Shown in pieces: positions 3,910 to 24,007 of a stretch of DNA of 64,000 nt. The notes under the pieces are model-generated. The model was not told the origin of the DNA and searched no databases. It worked only from the letters and a program-made list of their open reading frames with translations. The DNA lies in contig CAJMGO010000004.1 in the NCBI GenBank assembly GCA_905212975.1, positions 4,044-68,043 on the forward strand, given 5' to 3'. The translations under genes and the position numbers were made by a program. The DNA comes from an uncultured Bacillota bacterium. GTDB lineage: Bacteria; Bacillota_I; Bacilli_A; RF39; UBA660. How positions within the stretch are numbered: position 1 is the stretch's first letter; every line of letters starts with the position of its first letter.

Positions 3910-6900
3910 ATGAAAAAGTTTTCAAATTTTGTGTGTAAAAACAGAATAGCAATTTTGATTGTTTGTTCATTTTTATTTGTATTTTCAATAATAGGTACTA
4001 AAATGACAAAAATCAATTATGATATTTTAGTTTACTTACCAAAAGATATTGAAACAGTAAAAGGTCAAGATATAATGACAGATGAATTTGGTATGGGTGC
4101 ATATTCTGTTGTTATGACTGATAATATGAGTTCTAAAGAAATTTTAGAATTGGAAGAAAAATTTAGAAATATTGATGGAGTAAGTAAAGTTATAAGTGCT
4201 TATGATGTAATAGGTACTAATATTCCAATAAATATGCTTCCAAATAATATAAGTTCAAAACTTAATAAAGATTCTACTGATTTGTTATTTGTTACATTCG
4301 ATGAATCTACATCATCTATTAAAACTATAGATGCTATAAGAGAAATGAAAAAAATAAACAAAGACGATGTTAGTATAAGTGGTATGAGTTCTATGGTATT
4401 AGATACTATGGATTTATCAGAAAGAGAAATATTTATATATGTTGTAATAGCTGTTATTTTATGCTTACTTGTTCTTGAACTTTCTTTGGATTCTTATTTA
4501 GTACCAGTATTATTGTTAGCAAATATTGGTATAGCTATTTTATATAATTTAGGATCAAATATTATATTTGGAGAAATATCTTATATAACAAAAGCATTGG
4601 TTGCCGTATTACAACTTGGTGTTACAACTGACTTTTCTATATTCTTATATCACTCATATGAAAATAAGAAGAAAGATATAAAAGATAAAAATGAAGCAAT
4701 GAGTGAAGCAATATGTGAAACATTTATATCAGTAACTGGTAGTTCACTTACAACAATTGTTGGATTTCTAGTTCTTTGTACAATGAATTTAACTCTTGGT
4801 AAAGATTTAGGGCTTGTAATGGCTAAAGGTGTATTTTTAGGAGTAGTATGTGTTTTAACTTTGTTCCCAAGTTTACTTCTTACATTTGATTCACTAATAG
4901 AGAAAACTAAACATAAAGCTATTAAATTTAGTTTTAAAGGAATAAATAAATTTGTAATTAAACATTATAAAGCAATATTTATTGTATTTATTATATTGCT
5001 TATACCACTTTATAAAGCAAATAGTAAGGTAAGTGTTTATTATAAAATTGATGAAAGTTTACCAAAAAATTTACATAGTATAGTAGCTAATGAAAAATTA
5101 AAAGAAAAATTTAATATAGTTTCTGCAGAAATTATATTAGTTGATAAAAATATGAAAGCATCTGATCAAGAAAAGATGGTATCAGAAATAGAATCATTAG
5201 ATGGCATTGATTTTGTATTATCATTTTCTAAAGTAGAAGAACTTGGTATAACAAGAAATATGTTAAGTGATGATTTATTAAAAGTATTTGAAAGTGATAA
5301 ATATCAAATGATGTTATTAAATTCTGAATATGATGTCGCTACAGATGAATTAAATAATCAAGTAGATAGTATTAATACAATAATAAAAAAATATGATAAA
5401 AATGCTATATTAGCTGGAGAAGGTCCGCTAATGAAAGATTTAGTTACAATAAGTGATGAAGATTTTAATAGTGTAAATACATCTTCTATATTCTTTATAT
5501 TAATAGTAATGTTATTTGTTCTAAAATCAGTATCACTTCCAATATTATTGATTTTAGCAATAGAAGCTGCAATATTTACAAATATGGGAATATCTTATTT
5601 TTCAGGTTCAGTACTTCCTTTTGTAGCGCCAATAGTTCTTGGAACAATTCAACTTGGAGCAACAATTGATTATGCAATTCTATTGACTACTAATTTTATT
5701 AATTTAAGAAAACAAGGAAATAACAAATTTGAAGCTATAGAAAAATCATTAGATTATTGTTCTAATTCGATATTTGTAAGTGGAATGTGTTTCTTTGCAG
5801 CAACATTTGGTGTTGGTTTATATTCTGATCTAGAAATGGTTGGATCATTATGTACATTAATATCTAGAGGTGCAATTATAAGTATGATAGTTGTTATAAC
5901 TGTACTTCCTTCAATATTATTAGTTTTTGATAAATTAATAATAAAAACTACTTTGGGTATGAAAGGAATGAATAAAATGAAAAAGAAAACAATAAATAAA
6001 GCGAAAAAAGTACTTGCTGCTTTTCTAATTACTTCATGTGCATTATTACCAAATGTATCTTATGCACTAACAAAAGAAGAAACTGTATATGCTAAATTAA
6101 ATAGTGATGGTAGTGTAAAATCTACTACTGTAAATGAACATCTAATAAATGATGAAAAATTAGATTCAATTATTGATTATTCAGATTTAGAGAATATTAC
6201 TAATACTAATAGTAATAATAAATTTAAATCAGAAAATACTCTTTTAACTTGGGATGCTAAAGGAGAAGATATATTTTATCAAGGTACAACAAAAAAACAA
6301 TTACCTATAACTGAATCTGTTACTTATAAATTAAATGGTGAAGAAAAAGATTTAAAAGACATATTAGGTAAAAGTGGGAATATTGAGATAAATATTACTT
6401 ACACAAATTTAGATAAACATAATAAATATATAAATGGAAGATATGAAAATTTATATACTCCTTTTGTTGTAGCTACATCTACAGTTATACCAGTAGAAAA
6501 TAATAGTGATGTAACAATAACTAATGGTAAGGTTGTAAATAATGGAAACTCTTATGTATTAGTAGGTTTATCATCACCAGGCCTTTATGAAAGTACTCGT
6601 ATAAATGATTTAAAAGATTTTAATAAAATAACTATAAAATATAATACTAAAAATTTTGAATTATCATCAATTTATTCAATTATTACTCCAAAATTAATAA
6701 GTAGTAAAGATATAAACAGTTTAGTTAACTTAAATTCTTTATACAGTAGTGTAGAATTATTACAATCTTCAATTGATAAAATAGAAGAAGGTTCAAAAAA
6801 AGCTTTAGATGGTATAACTAGTGTTGAAGATGGAAGTATTAAAATAAATGATAACTTAAAAATTGTATCACAAAAATTAGATGAAATAAAAAATGGTAGT

Positions 6901-7701
6901 ATTTCAGTAGATAATGGATTAGAACAAATAATACAACAATTAGATAAATCAAGTGAAGTTTTAAATAATAAAGAGACATTGCAAAATATTGAAAATATGA
7001 AATTATTAATATCAAAGAATGAAGAAGTTATAAAATCTCTTGAAACATCAACAAGTTCATTGAAAGAAAATTATACTAAATATGCTTTAGCAAATAAAAC
7101 ATATGAAGAAATATTAAATGCTCCAACAGAAATAGATTTATATAATATTAAATTTACTTATGAAAATACATATTCAAAAAATGTTGAAATGTTAACTCTT
7201 TTAAAAACAAATAATGAAGCTTTAAAAACATCTTTAAATACATTTAATGAAGTTAATACAAAAATAACTACAACAATAACAACATTAAAAACATATTTAA
7301 ACCAAATAAAAATAGGAACAAGTAAATTATCATCAGGTACTTCTCAATTAAGTAGTGGAATGACTACACTAAGTGGTAAGATGAATGAACTTACAGCTGG
7401 TACAACAAACCTTAAAAATGGAATGACTACTTTAAATGATGGAATAGTAACATTTAATAATGATGGTATAAAGAAATTATCAAGTATGAGTAATACATTA
7501 AAAACATACTCTACAAGAGTAAATTCACTAGTTAAATTAAGTGAAGAATATAAAACAATGAATTTAAGTGGTGATAATGAAGCTAGTAGTAAATTTATAC
7601 TTGTAATAGATGGTGAAAAGAAAGAAAACAAAGTAACTAAAAAAGAAGAATCAGCAAAAAAAGAAACCATTGCTGATAGAACAAAAAAATTATTTAAATA
7701 A
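3910..7701 (+). CDS. MMPL/RND-superfamily transporter fused to a long extracellular coiled-coil (YhgE/Pip-like heptad repeat) region
   Basis: 1263 aa. Two bundles of ~6 TM segments separated by soluble loops (MMPL layout). An extra TM (KKVLAAFLITSCALL) is followed by ~560 aa with xxxLxxG-type repeats (GTSKLSSGTSQLSSGMTTLSGKMNELTAGTTNLKNGMTTLNDG). Confidence 0.8.
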   Translation: MKKFSNFVCKNRIAILIVCSFLFVFSIIGTKMTKINYDILVYLPKDIETVKGQDIMTDEFGMGAYSVVMTDNMSSKEILELEEKFRNIDGVSKVISAYDVIGTNIPINMLPNNISSKLNKDSTDLLFVTFDESTSSIKTIDAIREMKKINKDDVSISGMSSMVLDTMDLSEREIFIYVVIAVILCLLVLELSLDSYLVPVLLLANIGIAILYNLGSNIIFGEISYITKALVAVLQLGVTTDFSIFLYHSYENKKKDIKDKNEAMSEAICETFISVTGSSLTTIVGFLVLCTMNLTLGKDLGLVMAKGVFLGVVCVLTLFPSLLLTFDSLIEKTKHKAIKFSFKGINKFVIKHYKAIFIVFIILLIPLYKANSKVSVYYKIDESLPKNLHSIVANEKLKEKFNIVSAEIILVDKNMKASDQEKMVSEIESLDGIDFVLSFSKVEELGITRNMLSDDLLKVFESDKYQMMLLNSEYDVATDELNNQVDSINTIIKKYDKNAILAGEGPLMKDLVTISDEDFNSVNTSSIFFILIVMLFVLKSVSLPILLILAIEAAIFTNMGISYFSGSVLPFVAPIVLGTIQLGATIDYAILLTTNFINLRKQGNNKFEAIEKSLDYCSNSIFVSGMCFFAATFGVGLYSDLEMVGSLCTLISRGAIISMIVVITVLPSILLVFDKLIIKTTLGMKGMNKMKKKTINKAKKVLAAFLITSCALLPNVSYALTKEETVYAKLNSDGSVKSTTVNEHLINDEKLDSIIDYSDLENITNTNSNNKFKSENTLLTWDAKGEDIFYQGTTKKQLPITESVTYKLNGEEKDLKDILGKSGNIEINITYTNLDKHNKYINGRYENLYTPFVVATSTVIPVENNSDVTITNGKVVNNGNSYVLVGLSSPGLYESTRINDLKDFNKITIKYNTKNFELSSIYSIITPKLISSKDINSLVNLNSLYSSVELLQSSIDKIEEGSKKALDGITSVEDGSIKINDNLKIVSQKLDEIKNGSISVDNGLEQIIQQLDKSSEVLNNKETLQNIENMKLLISKNEEVIKSLETSTSSLKENYTKYALANKTYEEILNAPTEIDLYNIKFTYENTYSKNVEMLTLLKTNNEALKTSLNTFNEVNTKITTTITTLKTYLNQIKIGTSKLSSGTSQLSSGMTTLSGKMNELTAGTTNLKNGMTTLNDGIVTFNNDGIKKLSSMSNTLKTYSTRVNSLVKLSEEYKTMNLSGDNEASSKFILVIDGEKKENKVTKKEESAKKETIADRTKKLFK

Positions 7702-7727: not shown

Positions 7728-7753
7728 GCTATAATCAATAATAGGTGAGAATT

Positions 7754-9016
7754 ATGTTTAATATTATATTTATAGTAGTTATTATTTTTATTATTGTAAA
7801 GCAGGTAAAATCTTCATCAAAAATAGATTCAAGTCCTGTTACAATGGGTAATATTAAAATACAAAATAGTTCACAATATACTCTTAATCCAATATATAAC
7901 TTAAATGATAAGCAATTACTTGAACAAATGGTAAGAAGTGAATTAAAAAAACAAAATGTTGAAAAGATAAAATTGAAATCCGTTGAGAATATTAAAATTA
8001 TATTAACTTGTATTTTTTCTTTATTAAATATTGTTTTTATTTGTTGTATATTTTTTCATACATTTTCTTATAAATATTTATTTGAAATTTTAAATATAAT
8101 AGTGTATATAATTATGATGAATAAAGTAAATACAGTAAGTTATTTAAAAAAACAAATTAAAGCAAGACCAGATGAAAAAATATCTTATATTATATCTTCA
8201 AAAGTTCAAGGCTCAGGTAAATCTTTACTATTTATAAGAATGATTATAATTATTGTTAGCTTTTTTTCAATTCTATTTTTTATAAAGCCACATACTTTTT
8301 ATGAAAAGACAGATGAAGGATATTATGTAAGATTTTATACATATGGAATCACTAATTTTGAAACAGTTACGATTCCATCTACATATAAAAATGAAAAAGT
8401 TATTGGAATAAGAGGAAAAGTATTCAGTAATATGAAACTTATAAAAGAAATTAATTTACCTGATTCTATTGAAGTTATAAGAGGAAGAGCATTTGAAAAT
8501 GACTATTCTTTGGAAAAGATTAATTTACCTAAAAATTTAACATATTTAGGTGGTAGTGCATTTAAGAATTGTAGCTCTCTTATATCAATAGAGATACCTA
8601 GTGGTGTTAAAGAAATAAATGGTAGTACTTTTGAAGGATGTTCAAGTTTAAAATATGTTAAATTACATGATAATATAACATCTATACATGGTTCAGTATT
8701 TAAAAATTGTTCAGATTTAGAAGAAATAAAATTACCAAAAAATATTACAGAAATAAGAGGTAATACTTTTGAAGAATGTACATCTCTTAAATCAATTGAT
8801 ATACCATATGGTGTTACAAGAATAGGTGGGCATGCATTTTACGGTTGTACTAATTTAAGGAGTGTTAAAGTTCCATCTACGGTTAAGGAAATAGGAAGTT
8901 CAGCATTTAGAAAGTGTCTTTCTTTAGATATTATTAATATCCCAGAAGATACAATTGTAAATGATAGAGCATTTAAAGAAAGTCCAACATTGGTATATAG
9001 GTATCAAGATGAGTAA
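7754..9016 (+). CDS. Membrane-anchored leucine-rich-repeat protein (BspA/LRR_5 type)
   Basis: ATG 7754 preceded by AGGTGA. ~4 TM segments in the first 180 aa, then about eight ~23-aa repeats (I..IP..V..Ig..AF..C..L). The stop overlaps the start of the next gene. Confidence 0.75.
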   Translation: MFNIIFIVVIIFIIVKQVKSSSKIDSSPVTMGNIKIQNSSQYTLNPIYNLNDKQLLEQMVRSELKKQNVEKIKLKSVENIKIILTCIFSLLNIVFICCIFFHTFSYKYLFEILNIIVYIIMMNKVNTVSYLKKQIKARPDEKISYIISSKVQGSGKSLLFIRMIIIIVSFFSILFFIKPHTFYEKTDEGYYVRFYTYGITNFETVTIPSTYKNEKVIGIRGKVFSNMKLIKEINLPDSIEVIRGRAFENDYSLEKINLPKNLTYLGGSAFKNCSSLISIEIPSGVKEINGSTFEGCSSLKYVKLHDNITSIHGSVFKNCSDLEEIKLPKNITEIRGNTFEECTSLKSIDIPYGVTRIGGHAFYGCTNLRSVKVPSTVKEIGSSAFRKCLSLDIINIPEDTIVNDRAFKESPTLVYRYQDE

Positions 9017-10739
9017 TATGAAATTTATACATTTATTATATGTCCCAACTATGGCATGTAATATGAATTGTAAATATTGTTATTTGGAAGATAATACAAA
9101 AGATGAAATGAAACAATATAAAGCAATTGATACATTAAAATATGCAATAAATAAATTTAAAAATAATAATGTGATGCCATTTAATATTTCACTCCATGGA
9201 GGAGAAGTAACAACTCTAAGTAAAGAAGATTTTCATGATATTATAGAGTATATAAGTAACTATTATAAGGAAAATAAAAATTTAATAGAAGAAAATGGTT
9301 TTAGAGTTGGTACCCCACATATAAAAACAAACTTATATAATTTAGAAAAACATATAGATACAATAAAAGAATTTAATGTATCTATTAGTGGTAGTTTGGA
9401 TTTACCTTTTTCTTTACATGATGAATATAGAATTACAAAAGGTAATAATAAAACATTAGATAAAATCTTAAAAAATATTGAATTATTAAATAAATTAGAA
9501 AATAAGAAAAAGGTATCTGCTACTATATTTAAAGAACACTATAATAGAATCGATGAAATAATAGAAAATATAGAGTATTTAAATAAAAATACATGTTTAG
9601 ATATGAATGATTTTAATTTCATGATAGGATTTGATTATAATTCTAACGGGTTATTAACTCCACTTACAGAAGAAGAACAAGTAGATTTCTTTAATAAAAT
9701 GCATGAACACTTTGATAATACAGATTTAGATTCAGGTGTTAATGGGGCATGGTTTAATGAATTTGGACCAGATTATTGTACTAATTGTGATAATTGTGGA
9801 GAAAAATTCTTTTTACTTGAAAAAAATGGAGATATTTATTCTTGCGTAAGAGGTCAAAAACATAAAGAATTTTATTATGGAAATATTTACAATAATACGA
9901 TAGAAGAAATACTAAATAATGCTTATGAAAAAATTATGAAAGCACATAATATGCAAAAGATGAGTGAAGAATGTAAAAATTGTGAGTATTTATATATATG
10001 TAAAACAGGGTGCCCATTTGTTAAAAATATTTATAATTCTAATAAGTCTTATACTTGCAAACTACAAAAAGAATTATATAAAAAAAGAAATTATGAACCA
10101 ATTAATGATAAGTCTATAATGTATGATTATATGTGTAAGATGCATCCTGATATAGCAGATGAATTTATAGTTAAAAATAATAATGAACATAAAAATTTAG
10201 AAGATTTAATAAAGGAAGATATACATTTAAAATATATATATGATCCAAACTCATTTATCTTAAGTATTGATGGAAATGAATATAATTTAGAGTCACAAAT
10301 ATTAAAAAAATCAAGGGAAATAGTATATATAACTAATAAAAGTAAAGTTGTTTTATATATAAGAAAAAATATAATAAATGAAGAATGTGAATATCCAGAG
10401 AACAATTCTGTTTGGATTATGCTATTAAGTGGAGATACAGTACAATATGGTGATGAAAAAAGAGTGAAACAAAGACATATAATGACACATCAGATATATA
10501 AAGGTGTACTTAATCAAATAAAATGTAATAAAGATGATTTTTATTGCTATGATATTACAAATTTATTAAAAGAATATAGTATATATCTATCAAATACTAA
10601 TCCAAATAATATATTTTTTACAACAGCATCACTTAGGGATTATCATTATTTAAAACAAAAAAATAATGCATATTACCATATAGAAGCAATAAATTTACCT
10701 TTTCAAAATATAGAGTTTAATTATTTAGAATGGAAGTGA
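9009..10739 (+). CDS. Radical SAM enzyme with SPASM-type auxiliary-cluster domain and ~220-aa unassigned C-terminal extension
   Basis: CNMNCKYC (CX3CX2C, nt 9057-9080), SLHGGEVT, then Cys-rich DYCTNCDNCGEKFF..GDIYSC.. and CKNCEYLYICKTGCPF. The start ATG overlaps the upstream stop (ATGAGTAA). The ORF-track start at 8961 is probably too far upstream. Confidence 0.85.
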   Translation: MSNMKFIHLLYVPTMACNMNCKYCYLEDNTKDEMKQYKAIDTLKYAINKFKNNNVMPFNISLHGGEVTTLSKEDFHDIIEYISNYYKENKNLIEENGFRVGTPHIKTNLYNLEKHIDTIKEFNVSISGSLDLPFSLHDEYRITKGNNKTLDKILKNIELLNKLENKKKVSATIFKEHYNRIDEIIENIEYLNKNTCLDMNDFNFMIGFDYNSNGLLTPLTEEEQVDFFNKMHEHFDNTDLDSGVNGAWFNEFGPDYCTNCDNCGEKFFLLEKNGDIYSCVRGQKHKEFYYGNIYNNTIEEILNNAYEKIMKAHNMQKMSEECKNCEYLYICKTGCPFVKNIYNSNKSYTCKLQKELYKKRNYEPINDKSIMYDYMCKMHPDIADEFIVKNNNEHKNLEDLIKEDIHLKYIYDPNSFILSIDGNEYNLESQILKKSREIVYITNKSKVVLYIRKNIINEECEYPENNSVWIMLLSGDTVQYGDEKRVKQRHIMTHQIYKGVLNQIKCNKDDFYCYDITNLLKEYSIYLSNTNPNNIFFTTASLRDYHYLKQKNNAYYHIEAINLPFQNIEFNYLEWK

Positions 10740-16832: not shown

Positions 16833-17858
16833 ATGAATAATACAAGTTTATTAATAGGAAAAGCAAATAATAAAAATATAAGACACGAAATTAGTTGTAA
16901 TATAAATAATTCTATAACAAATCATGAGAATATATTAGTTTTTAGTGATAATGTATCTTATTATAGTGATTTTTTAAGAAAATTAAATGAAGAAGAATAT
17001 AATACCTATATATTAAATTTAAAAGATAGTTCTCATAGTAATGGATTTAATCCTTTTATTCTTCCATATAAATATTATAAATCTGGTAAAAAAGATAAAG
17101 CAGTTGAAATGTTAGAAAGCATTGGGCATGAGATTTGTAAGGAAAAGAATAGTAATTCAGATCCTTTTTGGGAGAATAGTGCTACATCATATTTTACGAC
17201 TTTAGCGCTTATTCTTTTTAAAGAAGGATCATATGATGAAATAAATCTAGGAAGTATACAAACTATGTTAACTCTTGGTGAAAAAGAATTTGAAGATACT
17301 AATTTAATTAAAAAGTATTTTAGTACCTTGGATATTATGGATCCTATTTATGTATTTGGATCTCAAGTTATATATTCTCCATCTGAAACTAGAGCAAGTA
17401 TTATATCGGTATTAAAACAAAAATTAAATTTATATTGTACAAAAGAAATTTTATTAAATAATTTATGTAATAACGAAATAGATTTATCTATTTTAAATAA
17501 TAAAACAGCAATTTTTATAATAAGTGATACTAAATATAATGGTATTTCTAATATACTAATAAATCAAATATTTAATCAAAATAAAGAATTTTCATATTAT
17601 ATAGATAAAATAGAAAAATTAAATAGTATTACTGAATTAGAAAATATGATTGATAATAATGAAAAAATATTTATTACGTCAAGTTCTAAGCAAGAAATTA
17701 GTGATATATATGGAAATAACTTAATAAATAATATAAATTATGTTAAAGATGTAAAAGAAGAGTATGAAATTTTAGATAAATGTAATATTAATTTACCAGA
17801 TACTAAAATTAATAAACATAATTATTTTAATATAGAGGATTTTATAAAAAAATGTTAA
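16833..17858 (+). CDS. Type IV coupling protein (VirD4/TraG/TcpA)-like protein lacking Walker A/B motifs
   Basis: ..GFNPFILPY..SDPFWENSATSYFTTLALILFKEG..INLGSIQTML..ETRASIISVLKQKLNLY..NKTAIFIISD.. follows the T4CP nucleotide-binding and all-alpha domain order. The Walker A position reads ILVFSDNVSYYSDF, and the LDEF position reads ISDTKY. No N-terminal TM. Confidence 0.5.
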   Translation: MNNTSLLIGKANNKNIRHEISCNINNSITNHENILVFSDNVSYYSDFLRKLNEEEYNTYILNLKDSSHSNGFNPFILPYKYYKSGKKDKAVEMLESIGHEICKEKNSNSDPFWENSATSYFTTLALILFKEGSYDEINLGSIQTMLTLGEKEFEDTNLIKKYFSTLDIMDPIYVFGSQVIYSPSETRASIISVLKQKLNLYCTKEILLNNLCNNEIDLSILNNKTAIFIISDTKYNGISNILINQIFNQNKEFSYYIDKIEKLNSITELENMIDNNEKIFITSSSKQEISDIYGNNLINNINYVKDVKEEYEILDKCNINLPDTKINKHNYFNIEDFIKKC

Positions 17859-17924
17859 AAAATTAAATTTATACTTTAAATCTACATAGAATATATTATT
17901 ATAGTGTAATATTGGGGGTAACAC

Positions 17925-18071
17925 ATGAAAAAAATAGAAAAATTAAAAAAATTAAGGAATGCTTTATTATATTATAAAGCAAGTATTGAACATGATGAAC
18001 AGATTAATAATCAATTTGTTCAATATGAAAAAAGTAAAGAAAAAGTAAAAATTTTAACTTTATTTAAATAA
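17925..18071 (+). CDS. Small hypothetical protein (48 aa), below the ORF-track cutoff
   Basis: GGGGGTAA SD-like element 5 nt upstream of the ATG. MKKIEKLKKLRNALLYYKASIEHDEQINNQFVQYEKSKEKVKILTLFK. Followed directly by a terminator. Confidence 0.3.
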   Translation: MKKIEKLKKLRNALLYYKASIEHDEQINNQFVQYEKSKEKVKILTLFK

Positions 18072-18076
18072 CAAAA

Positions 18077-18102
18077 GAACATTCATTAGAATGTTTTTTT
18101 TT
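18077..18102 (+). terminator. Rho-independent terminator
   Basis: Stem GAACATTC / GAATGTTT with a 4-nt loop, then T9. Confidence 0.6.
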
Positions 18103-18154
18103 GATGTTATAATTTGAAAAAAGTAATAAAAAGTGTTACAATTATGAAGTTGAG

Positions 18155-20242
18155 GTGATTACTTTGAAAAAAGGTAATAAATTTTTAAATTATATTAAAT
18201 CTTTCTTCAAAGATTTTTCAATTAATTTTGTTAAATGTATAAAGAAAATTATTAATTATTCAAAGACTAATATACTATTTTTTACATTTGTTATAACTTC
18301 TGTTATAAATTCAACTATGCTTAGATTATTTACAGTAAAGAATGGGTTAAGTATTAGTCCTGTTTTAGCTGATTTAACAGTAGTTATATTTATTGGATCT
18401 ATTTGCTATTTTTTAAAGCCAAAACACCAATTTAAATACTTGTTTATTATGTCGGTTATATTTTCTATAATTTGTATAATTAATTCTGTTTATTATACAA
18501 ATTATGTTTCTTTTTCATCTGTATCGTTATTAAAGGCTGCAGGTCAATTGGGAGGAGTAAAAGACTCAGTTACTGATTTGTTACAACCAAGAGATTTTTA
18601 TTATCTATTTCAAGTTGTAGCACTCTTATTTGTACATAAGTTTTTAAAACGTAAAGGTTATTATAAAAAGGTTGAAAAAATTGAAGTAGGTAGAATTAGA
18701 TTTTTAAACTCAATTGTTGGAGGACTTATTACTTTAGGTTTCTTTGTATCAACATTAACTAGTACAGATATAAGTAGATTAAGTAAACAATGGAATCCTG
18801 AATATATTGTTATGAAATATGGAATATATACATACCATATAAATGACTTAATTACAAATATTAAATCATCATTAAATCCTTTATTTGGATATGATAAAGC
18901 TGCAGCTCAGTTTAGAGAATTTTATTCACAGGATTCTGAAACTAAAACAAATGAATATACAAATTTATTACAAGGAAAAAATGTTATAGCAATACATGCA
19001 GAAAGTATGCAAAAATGGGTAATAAATACAACCATAAATGGGAAAGAAATAACTCCTAATTTAAATAAATTAGTTCGTGAAGGACTTTATTTTTCTAATT
19101 TTTATGCACAAGAAAGTACAGGAACAAGTAGTGATAGTGAATTTACATATGCATCCTCAATTTTACCAACTTCTAAAGGTACTGTTTTTGTAAATTATTA
19201 TGATAGAAAATATGTAACTTTACAAAATATGTTAAAAGAAAAAGGATATTATACTTTTAGTATGCATGGTAATAATTGTTCATTCTGGAATAGAAAGCTT
19301 GCATATGAAAGTATAGGTTATGAAAAATTTTATTGTTATACTAATGATTATGTAATTGATGATACTGTTGGTCTTGGACTTTCGGATAAATCATTCTTTA
19401 GACAATCAATTGATATATTAAAAAATATTAAACAAGAACATAAAAATTATTATGGAACAATGATTATGTTATCCAACCATACACCATTTAATAAAAATGG
19501 AGAACCTTTTTCAGATTTTGATGTAAGATATCACTTTCAAAAATTAAATGAAGAAACAGGTGAATATGAAGATGCATCTTGGGATTATTTGGAGGGAAGA
19601 AAGTTAGGATATTATATCCAATCAGTTCATTATGCTGATGAAGCACTAGGTGAATTAATTGAATATCTAGAGAATAATAATTTAATGGAAAATACTCTTT
19701 TAGTATTGTATGGTGATCATGATGCTAAAGTGAAAAAATCTGATTATAATTTTTATTATAATTTTAATCCAGAAACTGGTGAAATGTATGATAAAGATGA
19801 TGAAAGATATCATGAAGTTGATTATTATGACTATGAACTAAATAGAAAAGTACCACTTATAATGTGGACAACAGATAGTAAATTGAAAGATAAATTTAAA
19901 GGTGAAGTTACAAAAGTAATGGGAATGTATGATGTTCAACCAACACTTGCTAATATGTTAGGTGTTAAAAGTAAATATGCTTTAGGGCATGATATATTCT
20001 CAATTGATGAAAATGTAGTAGTATTTCCTGATGGTAACTGGTTAACAGATAAAATGTATTATAATAGAAGTAAAGACGAAGGAAAAATGCTAGATATAAA
20101 TGAAACAGTAGGAAGTGATTACATTAATTATTATAATGATTATTCAGATAAATTAATTACTGTTTCAAATTCAATAATAACATATGATTTAATATTAAAA
20201 ACAGAGGAACAAGAAAAAATACTAAATGAAGTTATTCCTTAA
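18155..20242 (+). CDS. ltaS: Lipoteichoic acid synthase family protein (5 TM plus extracellular sulfatase-fold domain)
   Basis: Five N-terminal TM segments, then the sulfatase-type domain (IHAESMQ.., ESTGTSSDSEF, MHGNN, LSNHTPF, LYGDHD). The start could be GTG 18155 or TTG 18164. Confidence 0.85.
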   Translation: MITLKKGNKFLNYIKSFFKDFSINFVKCIKKIINYSKTNILFFTFVITSVINSTMLRLFTVKNGLSISPVLADLTVVIFIGSICYFLKPKHQFKYLFIMSVIFSIICIINSVYYTNYVSFSSVSLLKAAGQLGGVKDSVTDLLQPRDFYYLFQVVALLFVHKFLKRKGYYKKVEKIEVGRIRFLNSIVGGLITLGFFVSTLTSTDISRLSKQWNPEYIVMKYGIYTYHINDLITNIKSSLNPLFGYDKAAAQFREFYSQDSETKTNEYTNLLQGKNVIAIHAESMQKWVINTTINGKEITPNLNKLVREGLYFSNFYAQESTGTSSDSEFTYASSILPTSKGTVFVNYYDRKYVTLQNMLKEKGYYTFSMHGNNCSFWNRKLAYESIGYEKFYCYTNDYVIDDTVGLGLSDKSFFRQSIDILKNIKQEHKNYYGTMIMLSNHTPFNKNGEPFSDFDVRYHFQKLNEETGEYEDASWDYLEGRKLGYYIQSVHYADEALGELIEYLENNNLMENTLLVLYGDHDAKVKKSDYNFYYNFNPETGEMYDKDDERYHEVDYYDYELNRKVPLIMWTTDSKLKDKFKGEVTKVMGMYDVQPTLANMLGVKSKYALGHDIFSIDENVVVFPDGNWLTDKMYYNRSKDEGKMLDINETVGSDYINYYNDYSDKLITVSNSIITYDLILKTEEQEKILNEVIP

Positions 20243-20247
20243 AAAAG

Positions 20248-20276
20248 AAAAGAAGATGAACAACATCTTCTTTTTT
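20248..20276 (+). terminator. Rho-independent terminator after ltaS
   Basis: Stem AAGAAGATG / CATCTTCTT (20250-20258 / 20264-20272) followed by a T-run. Confidence 0.7.
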
Positions 20277-20327
20277 GAATAAAATATATTGTCAAGAATA
20301 AAATATTTTGATATAATCTTCTTGTAT

Positions 20328-20401
20328 GGGTCTATAGCCAAGTGGTAAGGCGTGGGACTGCAACTCCCTGATCGTTGGTTCAAATCCGACTAGGCCCTCC
20401 A
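20328..20401 (+). tRNA. tRNA-Cys (GCA), CCA encoded
   Basis: Acceptor GGGTCTA/TAGGCCC, anticodon loop CUGCAAC, T-loop GGTTCAAATCC, 3' TCCA. Confidence 0.9.
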
Positions 20402-20630
20402 TCGGGAAATCTGTTCGAACTTTTATAGTTTAGGGCTTAATATATAAAATATCAATTTCTAAATGAAGTTGATATTTTTTTTGTTAAGAAAAGACAGATT
20501 TTATGATTAATATTGCAAGAAAACAAATGGAGTTATTAAAGAATAATAAATCATTTAATAATATTGAATACATTGAAAACAAAATTAATAACAAACAAAA
20601 GTTAACTTTATAACAACATTTTGAATATAG

Positions 20631-20666
20631 AAAAAACGATGGCTATTATAAGTCATCGCTTTTTTT
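20631..20666. terminator. Bidirectional terminator
   Basis: 8-bp stem CGATGGCT / AGTCATCG flanked by A6 and T7. Lies just downstream of the minus-strand gene that ends at 20684. Confidence 0.5.
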
Positions 20667-20683
20667 AGAATATTTTTAAATTA

Positions 20684-21034
20684 CTAATTGAAAATGCCAA
20701 AAATACTTGCTAAAGCATTAATTATAAGTGAAAGTGGTATCATAGATGTAAGTATGGCTATTATACTAAATGATATCTTAAGAGATGTTTCTTTTTTTGA
20801 TTTTAATGCACATACTATATAAATAATTGCAAATACAAATAATAAAATATTGTCTATCCATAATAATGGACCATTAATATAATTGATTAAAAAGTTACTA
20901 ATATTATCTATATTTTGATCTATATAAGTTAGGTATGTAAAATTTAATATTGTAATCATTATACTTATAAATGTTAAAACTATTAAAGATATTTTTATAA
21001 ACTTTTCTACATCACTATTTAATATTTTTTTCAT
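20684..21034 (-). CDS. Small integral membrane protein (3 TM), function unknown
   Basis: 116 aa, three hydrophobic segments, GGAGGATGA SD region upstream. Confidence 0.5.
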   Translation of the reverse strand: MKKILNSDVEKFIKISLIVLTFISIMITILNFTYLTYIDQNIDNISNFLINYINGPLLWIDNILLFVFAIIYIVCALKSKKETSLKISFSIIAILTSMIPLSLIINALASIFGIFN

Positions 21035-21144: not shown

Positions 21145-21507
21145 ATGAAAAAAGGTTTTACTTTGATTGAATTGTTGGCTGTTATTACTATAATGGGTTT
21201 GCTTGCTGTTATTATGATACCTAAGATTTTAGAAAGAGTTGATAACGATAACCAAAAAGTAGATGAAGCAAAGGTTTCATTAATTAAAAGTGCGGCTGAT
21301 ACATATATATCCAAAAATATAAATGATTATCCAAATACATTAAATAATATTTATTGTATTTCTTTATCTGATCTTGATGATTCAGGACTTATAATGGTTG
21401 ATATATCTGATGTTATAGATAATGGTTATGCTTATGTTAAAGCTAGTATTAAAGAAAATGGTAATTTGTATTCTTTAACAGAAAAGTGTCAAGAAGTTAA
21501 AAATTAG
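21145..21507 (+). CDS. Type IV pilin/pseudopilin-like protein (prepilin N-terminal methylation motif)
   Basis: MKKGFTLIELLAVITIMGLLAVI is the G/FTLIE class III signal. AGGTGA SD before ATG 21145. The ORF-track start at 21094 is too long. Confidence 0.75.
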   Translation: MKKGFTLIELLAVITIMGLLAVIMIPKILERVDNDNQKVDEAKVSLIKSAADTYISKNINDYPNTLNNIYCISLSDLDDSGLIMVDISDVIDNGYAYVKASIKENGNLYSLTEKCQEVKN

Positions 21508-21536
21508 TTGTAAATTTTATTTTATATTGCTATAAT
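21508..21536 (+). promoter_or_regulatory. Strong sigma-A-type promoter (TTGTAA, 17-nt spacer, TGcTATAAT)
   Basis: -35 TTGTAA at 21508-21513, 17-nt spacer, extended -10 TGCTATAAT ending at 21536. Lies immediately downstream of the pilin stop. Confidence 0.55.
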
Positions 21537-21542
21537 TAAATT

Positions 21543-21707
21543 ACTAGAGGAAGTTATAAAAGAAAAACCTACAAGTAAACGATTCGGGAACTTAATGAAT
21601 AGGTTGTGTTGAATGCTTAAATTTATTTAAGAATCCTAATATTTATTCTGTAGTGCCCACCTGGTAGAACAGGTTTTATCGTTTAGACTTCTTCTAGTTT
21701 TTTTTTT
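21543..21707 (+). ncRNA. Candidate 6S-like structured RNA (~165 nt)
   Basis: Own promoter. 11-bp end-to-end closing helix (21544-21554 with 21687-21697). 7-bp helix AAAACCT/AGGTTTT (21564-21570 / 21671-21677). Large unpaired central region on both strands. Apical hairpin CTTAAA-TTTA-TTTAAG. U-run 21698-21707. Confidence 0.45.
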
Positions 21708-21748
21708 GTATTTATGTTATAATTGTCTTAATGATAGGAGGCATCATT

Positions 21749-24007
21749 ATGAGTAAGAAAAAAAAGAGAAAAGAAGAAGGTAAAACTCCTAAAAAATATT
21801 CTACAGAATTATTTGGTTTACTTCTTATAATAATTGCTCTTATAGGTTTTATTCCAAAAACAGGAATTATAGGTAATTTTATAAGTAGTTTTTCATCCTT
21901 TTTAGTTGGAATATGGTATGGTTTGTTTTTGATAGCTTTAATAGTTATTGGAATATATATGATTATAAAAAGAGAAAAACCAGACTTTTTTACATCAAAA
22001 CTTGTTGGGCTTTATATATTTATTTTAGGATTATTAGTTTTAACTCATACTAAATATATAAAAGATACTGATTTAAAAGGAATGGATATAATCAGTGAAA
22101 CTTTAAATCAATTTATGGCTTCTATATCATCAGGTAAAAGTCAATTAGGTGGTGGAATTATAGGAGCTGCATTTTCTTGCCTTTTTGTAACTCTTTTTGA
22201 TACAACAGGAACTACTATTGTAACATGGGCATTACTTATATGTGGTGTTGTTATGTTTACTGGAATGTCTATTATGGATATTTTAAAGAAAGGTGCTTCG
22301 AAGGTTAAAATAACAAAACATGAAAAGAAAGAAAAAGAAGAAAAAAATGAAGTTAGAGAAATTCATGACTTAAAAGAACTTGATGAAGTAAATGAACAAA
22401 GTGATAAAAGAACTGTTGTAACATCAATAGATGAGATAATAAATATTAATAATAATGCAAAGGAAGAAGTTAAACCAGATGTTATTTTAGAACCAAAAGA
22501 TGTTGTTGAAGAAATTGAACCTATAAATAAAAAAGGCTATGTTCTTCCTTCTAATAATCTTCTTTCTAAACCAAAACAAAAACAAGTAGAGAGTAAAGAT
22601 ACTATTGCTCATAATGTTACTGTACTTGAACAAGTTTTAAAGGATTTTGGTATAACTGGACATGTTGTTGCAATTAATCCTGGACCTACGGTTACTCAAT
22701 ATGAAGTAGAAGCTGCAAGTGGTACAAAAATGAGTAAAGTTTTAAGTATTCATAGGGAAATTGCTCTTGCTTTAGCTGCTAAAAATATTCGTATAGAAGC
22801 ACCTATACCTGGTAAATCAACTATAGGTATAGAAATACCTAATAAAGTTGTTTCTACTGTAACAGTAAGAGAAATTCTAGATAGTGTACCTCCTAAATAT
22901 AAAGATTCTAAATTGCTTACTACTTTAGGTAGAGATATAATGGGATCTCCTCAATATTGTGAGATTAATAAAACACCACACCTTTTGGTTGCTGGATCTA
23001 CTGGTAGTGGTAAATCAGTATGTATAAATAGTATGATTGTATCAATACTTATGCGTTCTAAACCTGATGAGGTAAAATTAGTATTAGTTGATCCAAAAAA
23101 GGTAGAACTTTCTATGTATAATGGAATTCCACATTTATTAACTCCTGTTGTAACTGATCCAAGAAAGGCTAATATAGCTTTAAAGAAGATTGTTACTGAA
23201 ATGGAAAATAGATATGATATGTTTAGTGATAGTGGTACTAAAAATATTGCTGGATATAATGAATATGTTGAAAAAGAAAATAAAAATAGAGATGAAAATC
23301 ATAAGATTAGAAAATTACCATTTATAGTTGTAATAATTGATGAACTTGCTGATTTAATGCTTGTTGCTGCAAAAGAGGTAGAAGATTCCATTATGCGTAT
23401 AACTCAAATGGCAAGAGCAGCTGGTATTCATTTGATTGTAGCGACTCAAAGACCTTCAACTGATGTAATTACTGGTGTTGTAAAAGCTAATATTCCATCT
23501 CGTATTTCATTTGCTGTTTCATCTAGTATAGATTCAAGAACAATTCTTGATATGACAGGTGCTGAAAAATTACTTGGTAAAGGTGATATGTTATTCTTAC
23601 CTCAAGGAGAAAATACTCCTATAAGAATTCAGGGTACTTTTATAAGTGATGAAGAAATAAAGAAAGTTGTAGATTATACTATAAATCAACAAAAAGCTCA
23701 TTACGATGAAACTTTTATAATGAGTGATGAAGAGATGCATGCTACAACTATGGTAAACGAAACAAGTAGTTCAAATCCTCATGAAAAAGATGCTACGGAA
23801 GAGCCTTTATATAATGAAATTGTTGAATTCGTTGTAACACAAGGTAAGGCAAGTGCTTCGCTTTTACAAAGAAGATTTAGACTTGGATATAATAGGGCAG
23901 CACGTGCAATTGATTTGTTAGAAGAACGTGGTATTGTAGGACCTCAAAATGGTTCTAAGCCAAGAGAGGTACTTATAAAACTTGAAAAAGAAGATAATGA
24001 TGATTAA
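21749..24007 (+). CDS. ftsK: DNA translocase FtsK/SpoIIIE
   Basis: AGGAGG SD before ATG 21749. 4-5 N-terminal TM segments, linker, motor domain (GSTGSGKSV, VVIIDELADLM, IVATQRPS) and gamma winged helix (LLQRRFRLGYNRAARAIDLLEERGIVGP). Confidence 0.95.
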   Translation: MSKKKKRKEEGKTPKKYSTELFGLLLIIIALIGFIPKTGIIGNFISSFSSFLVGIWYGLFLIALIVIGIYMIIKREKPDFFTSKLVGLYIFILGLLVLTHTKYIKDTDLKGMDIISETLNQFMASISSGKSQLGGGIIGAAFSCLFVTLFDTTGTTIVTWALLICGVVMFTGMSIMDILKKGASKVKITKHEKKEKEEKNEVREIHDLKELDEVNEQSDKRTVVTSIDEIININNNAKEEVKPDVILEPKDVVEEIEPINKKGYVLPSNNLLSKPKQKQVESKDTIAHNVTVLEQVLKDFGITGHVVAINPGPTVTQYEVEAASGTKMSKVLSIHREIALALAAKNIRIEAPIPGKSTIGIEIPNKVVSTVTVREILDSVPPKYKDSKLLTTLGRDIMGSPQYCEINKTPHLLVAGSTGSGKSVCINSMIVSILMRSKPDEVKLVLVDPKKVELSMYNGIPHLLTPVVTDPRKANIALKKIVTEMENRYDMFSDSGTKNIAGYNEYVEKENKNRDENHKIRKLPFIVVIIDELADLMLVAAKEVEDSIMRITQMARAAGIHLIVATQRPSTDVITGVVKANIPSRISFAVSSSIDSRTILDMTGAEKLLGKGDMLFLPQGENTPIRIQGTFISDEEIKKVVDYTINQQKAHYDETFIMSDEEMHATTMVNETSSSNPHEKDATEEPLYNEIVEFVVTQGKASASLLQRRFRLGYNRAARAIDLLEERGIVGPQNGSKPREVLIKLEKEDNDD

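Follow-up and report, generated by a model that had tools for sequence, protein, structure and literature searches.

6S RNA mimics an open promoter and thereby sequesters RNA polymerase. In Escherichia coli, its gene (ssrS) is cotranscribed with ygfA, and the RNA is then processed; in Aquifex aeolicus, the RNA is about 160 nt long. Bacillus subtilis has both a 6S-1 RNA of 197 nt, trimmed by RNase J1 from a 208-nt precursor, and a 6S-2 RNA of 211-214 nt (PMC10578484). The gene for 6S-1 (bsrA) is found near rarA, and for 6S genes, conservation of synteny only at the level of the family is the normal state of affairs (PMC8414754). Among known and predicted pRNAs, a GG at positions 4/5 or 5/6 and an A upstream of the start are conserved (PMC8414754). 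As for the refolding of the RNA, a 3' bubble hairpin is described in E. coli 6S RNA and a "central bubble collapse helix" in B. subtilis and A. aeolicus (PMC8876501). On 6S RNA in Mollicutes and Tenericutes, our search of the literature found no statement of either presence or absence in these lineages.

In this paper, we focus on one short element just upstream of ftsK in a 64,000-nt stretch of DNA (hereafter, "the window") from an uncultured Bacillota bacterium: is it a 6S RNA gene, and if it is, of what kind? The initial annotation, made from the letters of the window, had proposed a 6S-like RNA with its own promoter, a proposal that is now supported both by a match to the RF00013 family and by covariation among orthologues. 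Judged from its sequence, the element is a 6S RNA gene of the ordinary sort, if a compact one, that has a promoter and a terminator of its own and directly precedes ftsK, and every 6S feature that could be looked for at that level is found in it. Family membership, structure, covariation, and the conserved layout of promoter and terminator are shown here. The whole reading—a 6S (SsrS-type) gene with its own sigma-A-type promoter, whose RNA would act as a promoter mimic and be released by pRNA synthesis—is, in our opinion, very probably correct.

A Compact Member of the 6S Family

The whole window was scanned against Rfam 15 at gathering thresholds, which returned four tRNAs and RF00013 (6S/SsrS) and nothing else. 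The RF00013 match, at 21538-21704 on the plus strand, spans the full covariance model (positions 1-187) and scores 56.9 bits, where the gathering score is 46.4 and the E-value for all 64 kb of the window is 1.2e-8, and so, the covariance-model scan that had been suggested as a check speaks for the 6S assignment. In E-value mode, 6S is the sole match of any family in 21300-21900. The score is only ~10 bits above the threshold; our clade model, R1, gives the same RNA 188.6 bits. Because the match passes the gathering score, standard annotation pipelines would label this gene.

What does the RNA share with its family? It has the closing stem, the helix P2, the central bubble, the interrupted apical arm, CCCACCU in the 3' bubble, and a template with the GG motif and the upstream A. 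In the Rfam alignment, AAAACC/GGUUUU falls on the P2 helix of the model, GGG/CCC falls on the bubble-flanking pairs, and CCCACCUGG aligns to the best-conserved block of the 6S consensus (CCCACCU). It differs in its size and composition, being ~160-165 nt against a consensus of 187 positions and extremely A/U-rich, with 30% GC. The RF00013 alignment explains the shortness: either side of the closing stem lacks ~10 positions of the model, which leaves that stem ~10 bp shorter than the consensus. The features and their coordinates are collected in Table 1.

Table 1. Features of the 6S RNA gene and the start of ftsK (positions in the window)
Feature	Position	Strand	Remarks
-35 element of the 6S promoter, TTGTAA	21508-21513	+	Direct reading and promoter scan
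Extended -10 of the 6S promoter, TGCTATAAT	21528-21536	+	17-nt spacer from the -35; direct reading and promoter scan
Predicted 6S RNA	21543 to 21702-21707	+	~160-165 nt; predicted ends
Closing stem, 5' strand	21543-21555	+	13 bp with 21686-21698; both-side changes in 8/13 pairs
Closing stem, 3' strand	21686-21698	+	Partner of 21543-21555
Helix P2 ("downstream" helix), 5' strand, AAAACCU	21564-21570	+	7 bp; invariant in 10/10 sequences; Rfam P2 positions
Helix P2, 3' strand, AGGUUUU	21671-21677	+	Pairs with 21564-21570
Central bubble, 5' strand, ACAAGUAAACGAUUC	21571-21585	+	15 nt
Central bubble, 3' strand, ACCUGGUAGAAC	21659-21670	+	12 nt; part of the conserved block CCCACCUGG
Internal and apical ("upstream") arm	21586-21658	+	GGG/CCC, AAC/GUA(G), 8-bp stem, GA/UC, apical hairpin
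Apical hairpin	21616-21631	+	Direct reading; covarying arm
Candidate collapse helix, 5' side, AACGAU (distal 5' bubble)	21578-21583	+	Complementary to 21678-21683
Candidate collapse helix, 3' partner, AUCGUU	21678-21683	+	Forms in the MFE fold
3' bubble hairpin, ACCUG-GUAGAA-CAGGU	21659-21674	+	Nearly invariant; predicted release hairpin
U-run, T10	21698-21707	+	With the closing stem, an intrinsic-terminator-like end
Extended -10 of ftsK, TGTTATAAT	21715-21723	+	Outside the RNA; marks the boundary of the unit
RBS of ftsK, AGGAGG	21736-21741	+	
ftsK	21749-24007	+	752 aa; Pfam FtsK_alpha, FtsK_SpoIIIE, FtsK_gamma

An Apparently Self-Contained Transcription Unit

The promoter that had been described at this locus—TTGTAA, a 17-nt spacer, and TGCTATAAT, firing into a region free of ORFs—is where it was said to be, with 10/12 matches and the TG in our promoter scan. 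There is no ORF of at least 30 aa between 21507 and 21731, and none of the six frames stays open through the element, which led us to reject a coding explanation. In DNA this AT-rich (24-27% GC), promoter-like matches by themselves are not significant (the scan found 14 against an expected 11); the 6S promoter does, however, keep its position in all eight of the distinct orthologues described below.

The transcript probably starts at A21543, the seventh nucleotide past the -10, and probably ends within the U-run (the T10 had been correctly noted), giving a rod-shaped RNA of 160-165 nt. Since the predicted +1 coincides with the first pair of the closing stem, neither a 5' leader nor its trimming is to be expected. 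In this, the RNA would differ from B. subtilis 6S-1, with its trimmed precursor, and the gene would likewise differ from E. coli ssrS, in that it looks like a self-contained unit from promoter to terminator.

Beyond the terminator lies ftsK. An extended -10 of its own had been claimed for ftsK, and it is indeed there, one base away from the position first given. The start at 21731 in the ORF list is inside the RBS; the true start of ftsK is the ATG at 21749, after AGGAGG.

The Fold

Folded as a single sequence, the RNA reaches -41.6 kcal/mol (z = -3.5), a stability equaled by 1 of 200 shuffles. The core of the closing stem, in which the initial annotation had paired the two ends of the RNA, is 11 bp between CTAGAGGAAGT (21544-21554) and ACTTCTTCTAG (21687-21697), with one G-U, and the stem extends to 13 bp; the second helix of 7 bp that it had drawn between AAAACCT and AGGTTTT is the helix P2, whose 5' strand doubles as the start of the predicted pRNA template. 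The apical hairpin, too, was rightly called. The central bubble needs more correction. Its strands cannot pair, as had been claimed (their duplex is worth -0.8 kcal/mol vs. a shuffled mean of -2.4), but they measure 15 and 12 nt rather than 25-30 nt each, and the statement that they are nearly identical does not survive, as they share only the loose similarity of ACAAG and ACAGG.

Between the bubble and the apical hairpin are internal stems amounting to 19 pairs, which are absent from the initial annotation and carry most of the covariation. The GGG/CCC pairs that flank the bubble are invariant or nearly so, and CCCACCUGG occurs in nine of the 10 sequences that we aligned, with CCCCCUGG in its place in the orthologue L074.

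One further observation concerns the two positions flanking the apical hairpin, 21615 and 21634 (columns 85 and 104 of the alignment), which hold two purines, and hence no standard pair, in every sequence: five have G/A, three have A/G, and two have A/A. Between the window and the strain represented by L064, there is a reciprocal swap of G/A to A/G at these positions, which may, judging by this pattern, form a conserved noncanonical pair in the apical arm.

Orthologues, Covariation, and Two Other Explanations

What led us to the orthologues was a set of FtsK homologues, 69-84% identical, together with look-ups of the exact protein. In every closer relative, there is a gap of 240-430 nt upstream of ftsK, and in that gap, Rfam scores a 6S RNA at 60.4 bits in L073, 56.2 bits in both L074 and L075 (two contigs of one species), 51.0 bits in L076, 47.4 bits in L077, 60.1 bits in L078, and 51.5 bits in L079. 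Thus, six distinct orthologous loci, or seven with L075, reach at least the gathering score. An eighth sequence, L080, falls below that score, yet it is plainly homologous and is recovered by the clade model R1.

All of these loci have a common layout: TTGnnA, 16-17 nt, TGnTATAAT, ~7 nt, a purine that opens the closing stem, the body of the RNA, the 3' strand of that stem, a run of T, and past that, ftsK's own TGnTATAAT, an RBS, and an ATG. In every orthologue, the first TGnTATAAT keeps the same distance to the closing stem. The TTGnnA, 16-17 nt 5' of the -10, is present in eight of the nine sequences compared (7/8 distinct orthologues; only L078 is without it), and a run of at least nine T (9-10) is present in 7/8 distinct orthologues, L079 having five T and a second T9 further on.

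Could all of this be a cis-acting 5' leader of ftsK, read through from the upstream promoter, with the stem and the U-run serving as a regulated attenuator? The element is, after all, only 41 nt upstream of the start codon and on the same strand, the adjacency holds across the subclade even where the upstream gene is a different one (rpoC in L076), and a closing stem formed over so long a range may be a kinetically leaky terminator, making some read-through plausible. We, nonetheless, consider a leader highly unlikely, because the RNA has its own conserved promoter and a terminator made of stem and U-run and because ftsK has a separate promoter with or without the RNA: in every orthologue, a TGnTATAAT of its own follows the U-run and precedes the RBS, and the same ftsK promoter is kept in 61 distant relatives that lack the element near ftsK. 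Furthermore, in E-value mode, the element matches the 6S model and none of the leader families, and no alternative antiterminator pairing with the ftsK RBS was seen.

Those 61 relatives, all GTDB representatives, mark the limits of the arrangement. Their FtsK proteins have at most 73% identity in the best tblastn segment (at most 68% among near-full-length matches), ftsK is usually preceded by eno or by other genes and a short spacer, and neither a motif search nor R1, applied to all 61 loci, found a 6S RNA within ~3 kb of ftsK; nor did Rfam find one near ftsK in the 19 of them to which it was applied (L001-L019). Within that distance, synteny of 6S and ftsK does not hold in these 61 relatives. 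A wider scan of metagenomes with the pattern AAACCTACN{70,100}CCNCCTGG gave chance matches among the 80 loci listed, and R1 found no 6S RNA in them.

Returning to the 6S reading, does the fold evolve as a fold? The alignment, A1, holds 10 sequences with a mean column identity of 79%. RNAalifold, unaided, finds 39 pairs in it, forming the same stems, with compensatory changes in 22. We then wrote out the canonical 6S structure, 41 pairs in all, and counted covariation over it on A1. Standard pairs occupy 96.7% of cells (83.5% in shuffles), and changes on both sides occur in 22 of the 41 pairs, compared with 10.2 +/- 2.0 in shuffles, none of 500 of which reached 22; controls with slid partners gave 3-11 such pairs, and the covariation score is 0.427 vs. 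0.165 in shuffles. The compensatory changes for which the initial annotation had proposed to look in orthologous spacers are, thus, there, and they sit in the closing stem (8/13 pairs) and in the internal and apical arm (14/21 pairs, with 96-100% of cells paired). P2 and the pRNA template AAAAACCUAC are invariant in the clade, and the strands of the bubble are conserved instead of covarying. Such a division, with stems kept as shape and the bubble region presumably read as sequence by the polymerase, matches the pattern to be expected of a 6S RNA.

There is a second way in which the 6S reading could fail. The RNA might descend from, or resemble, 6S RNA without sequestering polymerase, acting instead as a base-pairing sRNA or as a binder of core polymerase in the manner of Ms1, a noncanonical 6S-like RNA of Actinobacteria. 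Noncanonical 6S-like RNAs do exist, the candidates in Weissella being others (PMC8414754), and our RNA is short, very A/U-rich, and modest in its Rfam score. Against this, the parts on which the 6S mechanism depends—the strands of the bubble, CCCACCUGG, P2, and the template with its GG—are the most conserved of all, and the stems vary by compensation, as would those of a working promoter mimic, so that we regard a nonsequestering RNA as very improbable.

The Predicted pRNA and a Possible Route to Release

We return, then, to the reading of this RNA as one that sequesters polymerase. That it is expressed and binds the polymerase, where its pRNA starts, and how it refolds are all judged here by analogy with the 6S family. 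Projected through the Rfam alignment, the pRNA start of E. coli (U44) falls on C21572, with A21573 just upstream on the template. We infer by this analogy that C21572 templates the start of a pRNA 5'-GUAGGUUUUU (in a longer form, 5'-GUAGGUUUUUCUUUU), positions 4/5 of which are GG; with A21573, both of the features conserved among known pRNAs are thus present. The GG at 4/5 is shared with E. coli, the pRNA of which starts with A at U44, whereas that of the window RNA would start with G opposite C21572; a G is also the predicted first nucleotide in the likeness to B. subtilis 6S-1.

The mechanism that we propose would run as follows. Transcription from the sigma-A-type promoter (TTGTAA, 17 nt, TGcTATAAT) would proceed from A21543 to the U-run. 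With the closing stem and P2 on one side of a 15/12-nt bubble and an interrupted arm equivalent to ~30 bp on the other, the RNA would take on the shape of an open promoter, fill the active-site cleft of the housekeeping holoenzyme, and keep the polymerase inactive when nutrients are scarce. On the return of NTPs, the polymerase would copy the 5' bubble strand and P2, beginning opposite C21572, into a short pRNA. The synthesis would unwind P2 and free AGGUUUU-AUCGUU, and the freed bases could then form both the 3' bubble hairpin (ACCUG/CAGGU) and a collapse helix (AACGAU/AUCGUU). With the bubble closed in this way, the polymerase would be released.

The calculated energies are of interest here. 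P2 is worth -5.2 kcal/mol and the ACCUG-GUAGAA-CAGGU hairpin, -6.9 kcal/mol, and the two are mutually exclusive, because the AGGU of the P2 3' strand is common to both. The open and collapsed conformers of the window RNA come to -33.3 and -36.4 kcal/mol, the two lie within ~3 kcal/mol of each other in most orthologues, and the MFE structure of the free RNA is the collapsed form, not the open one. On A1, 93% of the cells of the candidate AACGAU/AUCGUU helix pair, but none of its pairs has changed on both sides; in L078, the helix is in a shifted register, and in L079, it has one C-A mismatch. Covariation speaks neither for nor against three of the elements, namely P2, the 3' hairpin, and this candidate collapse helix, because their sequences vary hardly or not at all. 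Finally, the predicted hybrid of pRNA and template is rich in A/U, and as a 14-mer, it is less stable than its counterpart in B. subtilis 6S-1 (-16.4 vs. -20.3 kcal/mol by the same method), and therefore, the lengths of pRNA needed for release may differ. One might speculate that longer pRNAs, or both of the refolding elements, are needed.

To which of the described 6S RNAs, then, is this one closest in its moving parts? With B. subtilis 6S-1, it shares the Firmicute type, a small hairpin that can form in the 3' bubble, and a pairing like that of the collapse helix, in which the distal 5' bubble meets the bases past P2 on the 3' side (PMC8876501). With E. coli 6S RNA, it shares the promoter-mimic architecture and, by prediction, a hairpin in the 3' bubble that draws on the 3' strand of the downstream helix after pRNA synthesis has opened that helix (PMC8876501); the hairpin is 9 bp there and 5 bp here. 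Because the hairpin here borrows four bases of the P2 3' strand, it would be more like the E. coli-type hairpin, which forms when P2 opens. A. aeolicus offers a compact 6S RNA, a small genome, and a central-bubble collapse helix (PMC8876501), a likeness by description only, as it belongs to an unrelated lineage and its RNA is G+C-rich.

A bolder proposal can be built on this. DNA of the 6S U-run and closing stem occupies the -35/UP region of ftsK, and therefore, read-through or occlusion could couple the expression of the two. One might go on to suppose that, in this subclade, the 6S gene has become fixed against the ftsK promoter, so that read-through or occlusion would tie FtsK, the chromosome-segregation translocase, to a growth-phase-regulated 6S promoter, and that an E. 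coli-type release hairpin and a Bacillus-type collapse helix together offset a weak pRNA hybrid. We think this proposal unlikely, if less so than the two explanations dealt with above.

The Neighborhood and the Organism

The public assembly collection lists the exact FtsK protein, counted from the start at 21749, in 289 blocks, most of them from human-gut metagenomes, and one metagenome-assembled genome (MAG), GCA_900752905.1, is 100% identical to the window across the spacer. Downstream of ftsK is a gene for a XerC/D-type recombinase; upstream of the 6S gene are a tRNA-Cys (20328-20401) and a gene for a protein of 120 aa that carries a prepilin N-methylation motif. Since rpoC stands in place of this pilin-like gene in L076, we take the linkage of the 6S gene to be with ftsK. 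Homologues of FtsK come under the source names "Tenericutes," "Mycoplasmatota," and "Bacilli bacterium." The window encodes PBP2B, MraY, FtsW, and LtaS, and so, the organism is a walled one and not a true mollicute.

Several features of the surroundings deserve mention in their own right. A prepilin-type (N_methyl) gene usually precedes the 6S gene (window 21145-21507 on the plus strand, L073 9199-9570, L077 5373-5759, L078 5400-5744, and L079 5400-5747), and in L074 and L075, comEA-like and comEC genes follow ftsK, which suggests a competence-pseudopilin neighborhood around 6S and ftsK. The block from ftsW to a 116-aa ORF varies among strains of the species (window 16833-21034, L062 1-3286, L063 1-3890, and L064 1-3902): in the window and L063, it holds a T4SS-DNA_transf fragment, LtaS, and the tRNA-Cys; in L064 to L072, an ABC exporter; and in L062, Mob_Pre and CD-NTase_C/Cap15 (CBASS-like) genes. 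This block, just upstream of the 6S gene, looks like a strain-variable island or an integration hot spot. The 116-aa ORF itself (20684-21034, minus strand) is without a Pfam match, is found in every contig of the same species, and is divergent from the pilin-like gene.

In L073, an 84% relative, the A-rich start of ftsK (ATGTCAAAAAAGAAAAGAAAAAGAAAAAGTTGA, 9800-9830) meets a stop, and the gene is called later, with 672 aa; this is either a homopolymer assembly error or a genuine frameshift in the Lys-rich N terminus (KKKKRKEE), which is conserved across relatives. A secE-nusG-rplKAJL cluster lies a few kilobases downstream of ftsK in several relatives but not in the window, and Rfam places an L10_leader upstream of rplJ in L078 (13678-13805), L079 (12938-13056), and L080 (13735-13853). 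Elsewhere in the window, a radical SAM/SPASM protein of 592 aa (8961-10739, plus strand) is encoded next to a BspA-type leucine-rich-repeat protein (7745-9016, plus strand) and an MMPL transporter (3910-7701), and the three may form a cluster for peptide maturation or export.

What the Gene Adds

The window RNA is a new member of a family that was already known, and our understanding of 6S biology is unchanged by it. What it offers is another case of a 6S context particular to a lineage, the gene adjoining ftsK instead of rarA, as in B. subtilis, or ygfA, as in E. coli. The clade-specific alignment and model are of use beyond this one locus, having recovered L080, which is below the Rfam threshold. 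The main value is one of annotation: what looks, from its sequence, like a working 6S RNA in an uncultured gut lineage of small genome and very low GC, often labeled simply "Tenericutes/Bacilli bacterium," for which the predicted ends of the 6S RNA, its promoter, and its predicted pRNA are now given.
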